NCBI RefSeq assembly: GCF_003790525.1
Contig: NZ_CP033635.1
Origin: Escherichia coli
Lineage (GTDB): Bacteria; Pseudomonadota; Gammaproteobacteria; Enterobacterales; Enterobacteriaceae
Reading direction: 5' to 3' (one strand)
DNA length: 64,000 nt
Under the pieces are notes generated by a model. That model saw only the letters and a list, made by a program, of their open reading frames with translations, made no database searches and was not told where the DNA came from. Shown here one piece after another: positions 9,603-14,538 of the stretch (the stretch's first letter is position 1; every line of letters begins with the position of its first letter). The translations under genes were made by a program, and so were the position numbers.

Positions 9603-12600
9603 TACCAGCTATATTTCACACCCAGCATGCCCTGAGTATCGCTATAGCCTTTATCACCTAGTTGCACACCGACATTCCCCCACAGGCTAAGGTTGTTATA
9701 TTCGCATCGTTCTGATACCAGGTCGCGTACAGTCCTGCGCTGTAACCGCTGATGCGCCCATCCGATTTATAACCCACATGATTACTCTGAGTATTACTGT
9801 GCTGATTGGCATAGCCTGCCATGACGCCGAGATGCCAGCGATCCTGCGTGCTACTCCACTGCGCCAAATCGCCGCCTAGCTGCAATACATAGCGGTTAGC
9901 CTGAGTATTTAGCTGACCATCACCGGTCCTGAAACGTTCGTGCCCTCCGACATGACGCATCCACATACTGGTTGCCGAATCCTGAACTCGCAGTGAATCT
10001 GTATACTGCGGCTCACCCAGACGGTCGTGTAAGCGATGGCTAAACAGCGAGTTGGCTGCGGCAATGTTGCTGATATAGCTTCCGGCCTCCGGGCGATAAA
10101 CTGATGGGCCTTCCGGATCCACAACAGGGGGATTATTGATGGGATCGGGTGTATCCGCTGGCGTTACGCCGTCCCATTTACTGGTCAGATACCAGTTTTT
10201 CTCGTCATTCCCCTTCCCTTTAGCCAGCGTGTAGACGTAAGCCCCAGCTTCGACAGTTCCGGTGGTCAGCGCGAAGTTACCTGCAGAATTACCGCCAACC
10301 TCAATGAGTTCAATACCGTTGACCGTTTGTGCACCGACGCCGCCAATGTTATCAACCCGAACGCGAGTGTTCCCTTGGGTATCGCCTTTCACGTTCATTT
10401 TATCCGTGGGTGAATTATCGCCGCCCAGCGTCGCGTTGAACGTCATCAGGCCATTGTTTCCGGTATAGTTGCCGTTAACGGTCAGTACATTCCCCGGTTT
10501 CCCCCCTTCGCTGTTCATTTGAACCGTGCCACCATTCTCCAGGTTACCGCCGACAGTGGTTTTAGCGACACGCAGTGTCCCCCCTGGCATAACGTTCACA
10601 TCACCTGCAGTGGTGACATTTCCCGACATCACACCGCTGTTATGGATATTAATGTGCTGACTTGCCATATTAATGGCAGAGTCGGAACCGAAAGCAATTT
10701 CACCACCCACGATATCCGTCGTACCCTGATACGCCGCGGAATCTTTGTTAAGAGTCAGGATCCCGGTACCCAGTTTTGTCACATCACCGCTACCGCTGAT
10801 ACTGTGCGTCATCGCCCAGCTACGCTCAGTGGCGATGGTGAGCAGGCCATTATTGATAACGGAAGCATCCCCCAGGTTTTTCTGCTCGTTGACGCTGAGC
10901 GCGCTGCCTGTATCAATGTTGAATTGCCCCACAAAGCGGCTATTATCGCCATCCAGCTCTACGTCTGTCCTGGCGGTTGCGCTCACGATACCCTTCCCGC
11001 TTATGCTATTACGCAGTTCGCCGGTCACGTTTTTTAGCGTTAACAGACCGTCATTGGCAATATTTCCTCTGCCTAACCCCTGCGTATTATCGAGGCTGAC
11101 TTCCGCATTTGGGCTAACGCTGGTTAACGCATTGTAGCGTGCATTAAGCCCCTCGATAGCCAGCGTTCCCCCTGTAACATTCAGGTTTCCGCCACCTGTC
11201 AGTTCACCCTGACTGATCCCACCTTTATTTACCGTCAGCGACCCTTCTTTGAACAAAACAGTCGAACCCATCTGCCCGGTGAATGTCTCTACCGTCTGCG
11301 TCGATCCATTAAGATCGACGATGGCCGCGTTGCTGATGTTCAGTTCCCGGGTGTTGCCCAGCGCGCCATCCGCATCGGTACGTAATGTCCCCATCTGAAC
11401 GTAGGTTGCCCCCTGATAGTCGTTCTGACCGTTGGAAAGCGAAACCTGTCGCACCGTATTGATTGCCAGATCCCCTTCACCACCGATTTTTGCCGACATA
11501 TCGGCCGTTGCGCCATAGGCTCCGCCATGTTCGGCTAATGTCAGCTTTTGCCCACCATGGATGTTCAGCGCTTTCAGCCCATAGTTAACGTACAAACCAT
11601 CACCTGGTGCGGTCGTGAGGCGGAATCCATAATCACCCTCAGCGACCACCGTTCCGTTTTGCGCAATGTGTAACGTTTTGTCCGCTTCCACCTCGTCGCC
11701 CTGTAAATCACGTAACGTTAATGAGCCACCCGACCCAATAACCGTTTGCGCCTTCACCAGTTGAACGCCGACATGGTTATCATCGTGTTCCAGCAAATTG
11801 AGCGTCGTCAGAGGGTTATTCGCCATGGGATCATTCCACGGTTTAGGCACGTCGATAAGCACGTCGCCCGTCCCGTTTACCTGATAGTTACGGCCTTTCC
11901 AGGTGTAGTCACTCGCGCCGACAACCAGCGTATCGACGCTGATATATCCCTCTGCAAGCGTCGCAGCAGGAATATCCGTATCGAAAATGAGCGTACCGCC
12001 ATTCATGGCCAGTCCACCAATGGATTGCTCTCCTACGTTTACCGATGTGGTATTTTCAATGTCAGACTGCAACATCGCGTGAGTAAGCGCAGCGGTGTTG
12101 TCGCGTTCCAGAGTGAAGGTACTGTCTTTCAGTTGGGCAACACCGGCGAATTCAGTCCCTGTTGCATGGGTAAAGCCAAACATCTTGTCGGAGGATGACA
12201 GCTGCACTCGCATCAAGCCATCGCCTTTGAGCGCATTGGTCAGCGTGTAATCTCCTGCGCTGTTCGTTGATGCGAGAATGTCGAGCGTACCGGGGCTTGC
12301 AATGGTGACTTCACTCGAACCCATGCCTGTTACCCCATCTGCCGTATGTGACGCAATAGTCAGGAGGCCGTCATTGACCAGCGTTTTACCGCTATAAGTA
12401 TTCCCTGCATTGAACACCGTATGGCCTGCATCATGCATCACTTTTCCGTCTTTATCGTCACCCGTAATCAGCATATCGACCTGGTAGCCGGCATCACTGT
12501 TATTGGTATGATTAAAGACAAAAACGCCTTCGCCAAGACCAAACTCCACTTTCGTCGCATTGGTAATAAACCCGGCATCTGCCGCCACCTCACCGTGAGC

Positions 12601-14538
12601 AGCACCAATGTTTAGCGTTCCTACAGCAGGCTCAAAAACACCTAAGTAAACTTCTCCACCTTCGACATTCAGCGTGCCGTTATTCGTCAGGGTTAACGTA
12701 CCTGTGCCAGTCGTCCCTACGTTCATATTGAATGTTTCAAGAAGAGAGTTCTGCCCATCCACCCGCACGTCGCCCTTACTTTTGTCATTCAGAGCTATCT
12801 GTGTATCACGCGCTTTAACTATACCTCCGGTGGTAATATTCAGTTCACCCGTACCTAATACACCGACCTGTAGCAATTGGGCGTTAGTAGATGACGTTTT
12901 TAAATTCCAGAGACTATCCGTTGAAATATTAACTATCCCCTTACCGGAGGCATTTCCTCCGATAAATCCATAGCCCGTTGAATTAAGGGTGGCACCATTA
13001 CTGACATTTACGATGCCGCTACCAAAATTACCGACATTGATACCTACAGTATCGAACGATGATGTCGCATCCATCAGGTTCAGTGTGCCGATACCGCTTG
13101 CTTTATCGCCCAAAAAAGTAATATTTTGCGATACGAACTTACCGCCATCGCTGATATTGAGGTTTCCGACGCCCGCAACACCAATAGTGGTATAGACATT
13201 CTTATTGACCTCCCACATCCCCCCCGTGGTGATGCTAACCTTCCCGATGCCGGTTTCTCCATAACCGAGTGAACTTCCTCCGTTGCTGACAACAAGCCCC
13301 TCATTACTGATATTCATTTCGCCGTGGCCGTCATAACCAAGATTAGTTCCGAGATTAGTGATAACGGAGTTCTTATCCTTAACAGTAATGTTGCCTGTGC
13401 CTGTTTCTTTCATCCCCGCAGTGATAATTCCCGAATCTACTTTGCCTTCACTAGAGACATTAAGTTCACCGTCGCCAGCATCACCGATATAGATATAGCG
13501 GAAAGCTTCGCCCGTTCCGAGGAAATTCCAATGCCCTTTATCGGTCACGTTGACGACACCGTGGGAACCGTCCTGAACGCCCACCAATGAATATTCTTTG
13601 TTATTAATCAGTCCATTATTGGAAATATTGACTTTGCCATTACCGAAATATCCATTATAGAGTCTGCGTACCGTGATGACAGAGTCTTGATCCTGCACAT
13701 TCAGGGTTCCGATACCGGTGGCATTGCCTCCGATAATCGTATTTTCAGCCGTAATCAGTCCACCCTCGCGAATAGTCGCTTCCCCAGTTCCTTGATTACC
13801 AATTTGAAATTCAATTGAGGAATCGTTATTTTTTATTAGCCACTCACCGCCCTTTTCAACGACAACCTTACCATTACTGTTCGCTTGATATCCTACAGTG
13901 GCGACTATTGAACTCGTGACGTAACCCTTATCCGTAATATTTAATGAGCCCGTACCGTAACTCCCTATTTCGAATAATTCGGTCGTCAGAACCGAGTCCT
14001 CTCCCTCAACATTAACCGTCCCGACGCCTCCTGTCGAAGAACCTATCCTTAAATATCCTCCGTCAACGTGACCCTTCTGTTTAATATTCAGCGTCCCCGT
14101 TCCGGATTGACCCACATTTAAAGGCCTTGCATTATTTCCGCTATCATACAATCGCCAGGTGCCACCCAAAACATTAACGGTGCCCTCCGAGTCCTCATTA
14201 CCACCAATGACGCTGGTAGTAATAGTGGTTAAGGAGGCATTACCGCCAGCCAAAATATTAAGCACTCCAGTGCCATACCACCCAACCAGGTAGGCATCGT
14301 AAGCAACATCAGTATTAATATTGGTAATCTGACCATTATCAACTTCCAGACTCGCACCAGACGCTGAACCGCTTAGTGCCAGCAAAACACCCAGCGTCAA
14401 TCTACTGAATTTCGTTGTCAATCCAGAGGATTTACGCAAATTAACCGTCGATGTTTTACCTACCCTGCGAGTTAATTCCGAGCAGGCCTGAAATACCTGT
14501 AGGGTGCAATTCCATATCACGCGATAGATTCTATTCAT
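9603..14538 (-). pseudogene. yneO: AIDA-I-type autotransporter adhesin with internal deletion/frameshift in the translocator domain
   Basis: 1626-codon ORF with extended signal peptide (MNRIYRVIWN...), repetitive passenger, start of translocator (NSLFSHRLHDRL...WMRHVGG...); ORF stops at 9658 while the final barrel strand (...[26 protein letters not shown]) is in another frame ending at 9603. Confidence 0.65.

Follow-up and report, generated by a model that had tools for sequence, protein, structure and literature searches.

The stretch of DNA under study, hereafter the window, comprises 64,000 nucleotides (nt) of Escherichia coli sequence (contig NZ_CP033635.1, assembly GCF_003790525.1). The gene that concerns us lies on its minus strand as a single open reading frame (ORF) at 9658..14538, which encodes 1626 amino acids (aa) plus a stop from an ATG at 14538 and whose product begins MNRIYRVIWNCTLQVFQACSELTRR…, and we identify it as a member of the ECSE_1600 family of autotransporters that has lost most of its translocating β-barrel. 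An earlier note, made from the sequence alone, had placed a repetitive passenger domain at 9721-14538 without giving a strand; 14538 is indeed the gene start, but 9721 falls inside the ORF, the plus strand of this interval is full of stops, and the remnant of the gene runs on to 9602, beyond the ORF end at 9658. We consider it very likely that the locus is a core-variable E. coli gene for a classical (type Va) autotransporter of the ECSE_1600 family, dead in the SMS-3-5 lineage through a 481-bp deletion, and that its repeats exist at the level of the protein only. The features of the locus are collected in Table 1.

Table 1. Features of the autotransporter locus, in window coordinates.
Feature	Position	Strand	Evidence
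Truncated ECSE_1600-family (YneO/YdeK-YdeU) type Va autotransporter ORF, annotated pseudogene	9658..14538	minus	ORF list, translation, NF011422, PGAP
Extended signal peptide, aa 1-62: ESPR MNRIYRVIWN...SELTRR, hydrophobic core LTLGVLLAL, SGSASGA	14353..14538	minus	Pfam PF13018 and sequence reading
Protein-level repeat array, aa 79-636, ~10.5 tandem units of 50-57 aa	12631..14304	minus	TIGR04393, iterated HMM, unit alignment, AlphaFold2
Remaining passenger, aa 637-1331, rich in β-strands	10546..12630	minus	weak PATR and β-strand-repeat matches
Autochaperone / pertactin-like junction domain, aa 1332-1452	10183..10545	minus	Pfam AC_1 and Pertactin
5' remnant of β-barrel translocator, from ~aa 1525 to the deletion junction	9699..9966	minus	PF03797 span in intact orthologue
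Junction of the 481-bp frameshifting deletion	9698..9699	minus	blastn against intact orthologue L002 (NA3664)
Out-of-frame tail and premature stop TAG (9658-9660)	9658..9697	minus	translation, sequence
Last 98 nt of the original gene, in another frame, with the original stop TAA at 9602-9604	9602..9699	minus	100% identical to nt 5324-5421 of the intact gene
Stable hairpin right after the original stop, 12-bp perfect stem within a longer stem	9563..9597	minus	RNA fold
Junction of a second deletion, 1611 bp relative to strain ST70	9474..9475	minus	blastn of window 8400-9720 against L004 and L003
A+T-rich lsrK-autotransporter intergenic region (presumed promoter region), GGAG 8 nt before the ATG	14539..15067	minus	G+C 0.31

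Used as a query, positions 9400-14800 of the window match SMS-3-5 (NC_010498.1) and some 20 further complete E. coli genomes at 100.0% identity, and the same query finds some match in 5415 of 5426 complete E. coli genomes, with query coverage of at least 80% in 3956 of them. In NC_010498.1 the Prokaryotic Genome Annotation Pipeline (PGAP) labels the gene an 'ECSE_1600 family autotransporter', a pseudogene that is 'incomplete, missing C-terminus'. On the corresponding NCBIfam model, NF011422 (ECSE_1600 family; cut-off 2335 bits), the window copy scores 3652 bits and aligns to positions 1-1617 of the 1806 in the profile, and an intact orthologue scores 4113 bits. The gene has lsrK on one side and the yde fimbrial operon on the other, and the order lsrR-lsrK-autotransporter recurs in SMS-3-5, NA3664, K-12 EMG2, ST70, CREC-544, strain 155, O26 RM8426 and others. 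We take the K-12 counterpart to be yneO, formerly ydeK/ydeU (b4696), a naming that agrees with the database name 'putative lipoprotein YdeK' and with mentions of ydeK, ydeU and yneO in papers. The literature searched yielded no functional study of the ECSE_1600/YneO protein, only mentions in work on genome comparison, systematic evolution of ligands by exponential enrichment (SELEX) and experimental evolution. According to the SE11 genome paper (PMC2608844), ECSE_1600 is an autotransporter of 1806 aa with a pertactin motif; SE11 and HS carry it intact, MG1655, E24377A and O157 Sakai have disrupted copies, and B2 strains lack it. Between them, public annotation and that paper already cover the gene, the family to which it belongs, the type of its repeats and the fact that it is a pseudogene in SMS-3-5.

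Domain architecture and loss of the β-barrel

The extended signal peptide that the earlier note had recognized from its opening MNRIYRVIWN... was confirmed by Pfam PF13018 (ESPR), which covers aa 1-47 (E=3.2e-14, 53.5 bits against a cut-off of 25) and provides the signal peptide of a type Va protein; its end near aa 62 was read by eye from the sequence, not from a computed cleavage site. Downstream of the repeat array, which is treated in the next section, the remaining passenger yielded a below-cut-off match to Pfam PATR (aa 1253-1281) and two stretches of TIGR02601. No regular periodicity was detected in aa 637-1331, where a hidden Markov model (HMM) of the repeat unit gives no significant copies, and the visible periodicity is confined to the N-terminal third of the passenger. 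The junction domain of a type Va autotransporter is present as well, with matches to PF18883 (AC_1, E=8e-26) and PF03212 (Pertactin, E=3.4e-10), and a sequence search of the PDB with the intact orthologue retrieved the IcsA autochaperone (3ML3/5KE1) and AIDA-I (4MEE). It is in the translocator that the window copy departs from the family. In the intact orthologue, PF03797 extends over aa 1525-1784 (E=3.7e-40) and the protein ends in …KYSW, with the terminal aromatic residue of a complete 12-stranded barrel, whereas the window protein has no PF03797 match at E<=0.01 and is covered by TIGR01414 over profile positions 2-249 of 432 only. Lacking the complete barrel of type Va, the window copy is thus a pseudogene of that family and not a functional member of it.

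The barrel was lost through a deletion of 481 bp that takes about 160 residues (aa ~1615-1775), most of the β-barrel, and shifts the frame; in the intact gene of 5421 nt the missing stretch is nt 4844-5323/5324, the junction being ambiguous by 1 nt. Homology between the flanks of the deletion is absent. Relative to the intact orthologue of strain NA3664, the window has an additional in-frame deletion of 3 nt. An 80-mer that spans the junction is found uninterrupted in 74 of the 5426 complete genomes, which come from many laboratories, hosts and countries, and the haplotype of CREC-544, 1.3% divergent from that of the window (98.7% identical), has the identical junction. Common to 74 complete genomes, the junction is therefore inherited and not an assembly error. 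This pseudogene status, with most of the β-barrel gone, is the main fact about the gene and was absent from the earlier note. PGAP also calls a 21-aa 'hypothetical protein' (WP_241525493.1) at 9602-9667 on the minus strand, which corresponds to the stranded last 21 barrel codons and is spurious as a coding sequence (CDS).

Beyond what is observed of the gene, its domains, its DNA and its inherited deletion, we infer from the domain set and from established autotransporter biology how the intact protein is secreted, that it acts as an adhesin and what becomes of the truncated form. The intact 1806-aa protein would be directed through Sec by its ESPR-type extended signal peptide, its C-terminal 12-stranded β-barrel would be inserted into the outer membrane by the β-barrel assembly machinery (BAM), and the passenger would be threaded out C-terminus first, with the autochaperone nucleating the folding of a long right-handed β-helix. 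Once folded, this rod-like β-helix would stay on the surface as a putative adhesin. The window allele would still provide signal peptide and passenger, but in the absence of a translocator surface display should be impossible, and the product would presumably be degraded in the periplasm.

Repeats of the protein, not of the DNA

An autotransporter passenger with degenerate G-x-G-x-L-N-I/V repeats had been read from the sequence in the earlier note, and at the protein level this reading stands. The pattern G.G.[LVIAMT].[IVL] was counted 22 times, where 1000 shuffles gave 3.2 ± 1.7 and never more than 9, and the NCBIfam model TIGR04393 (T5SS/PEP-CTERM-associated repeat) matches nine stretches with 175.6 bits against a cut-off of 23 (E=1.3e-52). 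An iterated HMM together with unit alignment resolves aa 79-636 into about 10.5 tandem units with two GxGxLN[IV] half-motifs per unit; among ten aligned units, protein identity is 29% (15-43%) and DNA identity 43% (36-54%). Public data hold 2861 cluster representatives with a match to the repeat array at E<=0.001; the distant ones listed are 29-42% identical to it. Within aa 112-636, long units of 54-57 aa, which carry a Trp loop (e.g., GGTWRL, GGEWLI, KGHWNF), alternate with short units of 50 aa, giving a super-period of about 104 aa, a spacing consistent with the weak echoes seen in the DNA at ~150 and ~300 nt.

Structure prediction with AlphaFold2, run on an input alignment of ten distant relatives and two close homologues, gave for aa 63-660 an all-β model (predicted local distance difference test (pLDDT) 90.2, predicted template modelling score (pTM) 0.90) with two to three short strands per half-repeat of ~25 residues. 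Each half-repeat is predicted to form one coil of a β-helix, and the array as a whole a β-helix. The best PDB matches that Foldseek found for the modelled array are Ag43 (4KH3, 7KOH) and TibA (4Q1Q), with E-values of 7.5e-6 to 9e-4 at a probability of 1.00, sequence identities of 13-16% and TM-scores of 0.21-0.40. As modelled, the protein has the β-helical passenger of a type Va autotransporter, in which the ~10.5 double units of the T5SS/PEP-CTERM-associated repeat would amount to ~22 coils and the G-x-G-x-L-N-I/V motifs would mark these coils.

The earlier note had called the gene highly repetitive, a description that does not hold for the DNA. Tandem Repeats Finder (TRF, minimum score 30) found no tandem repeat inside the gene, a search for dispersed repeats in the gene returned nothing beyond matches of at most 26 nt at ~70-90% identity, and self-blastn with a word size of 11 gave 0 non-self high-scoring segment pairs. 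No exact direct repeat exceeds 11 nt, whereas the longest in codon-shuffled versions averages 12.2 nt, and exact runs shared in register between units likewise reach 11 nt at most. Under permissive 1/-1 scoring, self-blastn produced three echoes only (58-62% identity, 130-200 nt, offsets of ~150, 300 and 620 nt), and these weak echoes are shadows of the protein repeats. A self comparison of the dot-plot type thus reveals no significant nucleotide repeats, the very outcome that the earlier note had named as refuting its own view. Judged by TRF, by blastn and by the unit identity of 36-54%, the gene is devoid of DNA repeats similar enough for slippage or homologous recombination of the contingency type. 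The repeats are old and divergent (29% at the aa and 43% at the nt level), and for this reason the DNA offers nothing for recombination or slippage to act on and the copy number is constant between strains.

Base composition changes along the gene, with a G+C content of 45-47% in the 5' third (repeat array; window 12500-14500) and of 52-54% in the remainder (10000-12500), and the coding strand shows a strong excess of G over C throughout (skew ~0.04-0.27 per 500-nt interval). The pattern is probably an effect of amino-acid composition (Gly, Asn, Ile, Thr).

Length variation and decay of the gene

Repeat counts proved constant across strains, without expansions. The intact CDS measures 5421 nt (1806 aa) in two intact orthologues, those of NA3664 and ST70, while the K-12 allele has a CDS of 5422 nt, frameshifted by a +1 insertion at nt 3954, and the allele of an O157-like strain one of 5429 nt, frameshifted by a +8 insertion near nt 3985. 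The locus spans 5810-5831 nt in 27 complete genomes, sampled evenly and free of insertion sequences (IS) and large deletions, and falls into two classes ~15 nt apart; between K-12 and NA3664, this difference is located past the stop codon, on its downstream side. Length differences of whole repeat units between alleles, the hallmark of a contingency locus, were not found among the intact alleles, the 27 sampled genomes or the best 120 database relatives. In four complete genomes (H17, H51, H59, H62) an insertion of the IS2/IS3 family divides the gene, so that an 'ESPR-type extended signal peptide-containing protein' is annotated apart from the remainder, and one of these, from strain XDL (H17), combines the IS insertion with the deletion allele of the window.

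Variation in length was found among the best 120 protein relatives in the database, which were globally aligned to the intact protein. They hold 95 distinct in-frame deletions of 26-363 aa, all but two of them of 92-363 aa; nearly all variants have one large deletion each, mostly singletons, spread over aa 316-1715. The deletion lengths are not multiples of the repeat unit and are out of register with the units, and six deletions lie inside the repeat array against 16.6 expected. Variants near either end of the gene are absent, probably through database clustering, by which proteins that keep a long uninterrupted segment are absorbed in full-length clusters, and no inference on selection is drawn from the positions. 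Microhomology at the junctions of the 95 variants, scored with the intact gene as proxy, averages 2.9 nt, and randomly placed junctions average 2.2 nt (Mann-Whitney p=5e-5); a tail of some 13 junctions that have 5-11 nt accounts for the excess, and most junctions have none. Expansions were not seen among these 120 relatives, the only longer proteins being three fusions generated by deletions that cross a gene boundary: in two of them (P0062 and P0079; 1975 and 1924 aa) LsrK (PF00370) is fused in frame to the autotransporter, and in the third (P0072, 1953 aa) the autotransporter is fused in frame to HipA (PF07804, PF13657).

Four other complete genomes (L007-L010) carry five frameshifting deletions of 233, 247, 780, 232 and 932 nt, with 0-1 nt of microhomology at their junctions and, in one case, a 3-nt GAT filler; these junctions look like the outcome of end-joining, not of slippage or recombination. 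We conclude that the gene varies in length through sporadic, homology-independent deletions typical of a decaying gene, and not through its repeats.

The ~22 degenerate motif copies in the protein and the 95 distinct shorter in-frame variants among the best 120 relatives are what one might hold up for the view taken in the earlier note, that of an intact adhesin gene whose repeats drive recombination, changes in repeat number and errors of assembly, much as in a contingency locus. We find this highly improbable, as the DNA holds no repeats beyond chance and its units are 43% identical, the deletions are one-off events that are not unit multiples and are unenriched in the array (6 against 16.6), microhomology is barely above the null (2.9 against 2.2 nt) and amounts to 0-1 nt at the five complete-genome junctions, and no expansion accompanies the intact CDS of 5421 nt, the same sequence being present in many independent assemblies. 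The predicted proneness of the repeats to recombination and length variation is therefore not seen, and neither is that of the assembly to error, given 100.0% identity in ~20 independent complete genomes and the deletion junction in 74. The chance that the 481-bp deletion itself is an artefact of assembly or sequencing, an idea suggested by its place within a gene that the earlier note judged hard to assemble, is practically negligible: the deleted stretch is non-repetitive β-barrel, and the junction 80-mer lies in one piece in 74 complete genomes, including that of the 1.3% divergent haplotype.

A further possibility is that the truncated gene still yields a useful product, exported via another barrel or pathway or serving in the periplasm, for which one could cite the 1626 codons that stay uninterrupted in two haplotypes 1.3% apart and the ratio of nonsynonymous to synonymous substitution rates (dN/dS) of 0.26 between them. 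This too is very unlikely in our judgement. PF03797 is undetectable in the window copy, and the passenger of a classical autotransporter requires its own covalently linked barrel. Of the 64 differences between the two deletion haplotypes, 31 lie within the first 1 kb, which suggests an imported recombinant tract and not sustained selection. The gene has also been broken independently elsewhere, by +1 in K-12, by +8 in the O157-like strain, by IS2/IS3, by deletions and by loss from B2 strains (PMC2608844), and such breakage in many lineages fits a dispensable gene. We therefore retain the reading of a type Va autotransporter gene that died in the SMS-3-5 lineage with its barrel, although several points weigh against it. 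The frame is open for 1626 codons, and dN/dS between the deletion haplotypes, at 0.26, is not close to 1 (comparisons with intact alleles give 0.10-0.15, and two intact alleles compared with each other 0.21, all from few and unevenly placed changes); purely neutral decay since the deletion is not demonstrated by these values, which recombination or a short elapsed time could explain. A simple scan for promoters and terminators found no sigma-70 site in the upstream spacer, and its site counts overall matched those expected from shuffled sequence. Finally, both the adhesin role of the intact protein and the non-export of the truncated one are matters that we infer.

A speculative and unlikely proposal is that in natural E. 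coli the yneO/ECSE_1600 locus is a hotspot, unusual in kind, of deletions that need no homology and are of the end-joining type; the deletions among the 120 relatives, at least 95 of them distinct, and the fusions to LsrK and HipA would speak for it. Seven junctions in complete genomes were considered, the two of the window and five in four other genomes; the six scored for microhomology (that of the 481-bp deletion and the five others) have 0-1 nt, and one of them carries filler bases. On this proposal, variants with a shortened β-helix that keep signal peptide and barrel might be selected, e.g., for altered adhesin reach or for escape from antibodies or phages. The deletions are explained equally well if selection is relaxed on a gene of 5.4 kb that is dispensable and sampled in very many genomes, together with censoring by database clustering, and comparison with a control gene would not tell this case from a mutational hotspot.

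Surroundings and known relatives

The hairpin that follows the original stop (-22.8 kcal/mol, z=-4.2, 0/200 shuffles as stable) is probably the native terminator or a stabilizer of the gene; a clear U-tract after it is absent. At the other end, the A+T-rich spacer is the presumed promoter region, and a genomic-SELEX study of K-12 reported a peak of RpoS holoenzyme in the lsrK-ydeK spacer (PMC5493296). An Rfam scan of 8400-15200 gave no matches at E<=1.

The second deletion has its junction 225 bp downstream of that of the 481-bp deletion, and both are common to the CREC-544 haplotype. It takes hipB and all of hipA but the last ~61 nt (remnant ~9414-9474), a type II toxin-antitoxin pair of which both genes are annotated in the comparison loci L002-L004. 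Farther along, 8893-9159 on the minus strand holds the remnant of an AraC-type regulator, reduced to its C-terminal helix-turn-helix part and annotated as a pseudogene in SMS-3-5, CREC-544, K-12 and others. The chaperone-usher fimbrial operon at 2096-8507, also on the minus strand, appears intact, with uninterrupted ORFs for a fimA-like subunit, a chaperone of 239 aa, an usher of 883 aa and three more proteins (176, 167 and 304 aa); the K-12 usher (ydeT), unlike that of the window, is an N-terminally truncated pseudogene.

For annotation, the locus illustrates that periodic β-helix motifs in a protein do not imply repetitive DNA, and such motifs call for no flag of assembly risk or recombination. 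Its decisive functional feature, a non-repeat deletion in the barrel, was overlooked by a motif-based reading. The locus adds one more case to the lineage-specific decay of E. coli adhesin genes; its significance beyond correct annotation is small, and the one trait that is slightly out of the ordinary is the number of homology-free deletions found there.

Set beside known systems, the window gene shares with repeat-variable adhesin genes a surface adhesin with a periodic passenger, but those genes have near-identical tandem DNA repeats, whereas here there are none and the copy number is fixed. With the T5SS/PEP-CTERM-associated repeat proteins (TIGR04393) it shares the 49-residue repeat model, which denotes a type of repeat and not a functional family and is uninformative about a ligand. 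Ag43 and TibA have right-handed β-helix passengers like the modelled array, a likeness of fold only that implies neither self-association nor glycosylation nor phase variation. AIDA-I (PDB 4MEE) is homologous to the autochaperone and barrel of the intact orthologue (E=4.2e-86 over aa 1345-1806). The AIDA-I model NF033176 scores 181 bits for the window protein and 352 for the intact one against a cut-off of 1200, over profile positions 801-1286 only, which places both outside that family, and the Pfam AIDA-repeat returned no match for either protein. The ~25-aa half-repeats of TIGR04393 type in the window passenger are unlike the 19-aa repeats of AIDA-I. ECSE_1600 of SE11 and YneO of K-12 are the orthologue of the window gene at the same locus (lsrK – autotransporter – hipBA/yde fimbriae), with ~97% DNA identity and the same organization of ESPR, repeat array, autochaperone and barrel; the window allele is frameshifted and without 481 bp of the barrel, K-12 is broken instead by the +1 at nt 3954, and SE11, NA3664 and ST70 retain the gene intact.

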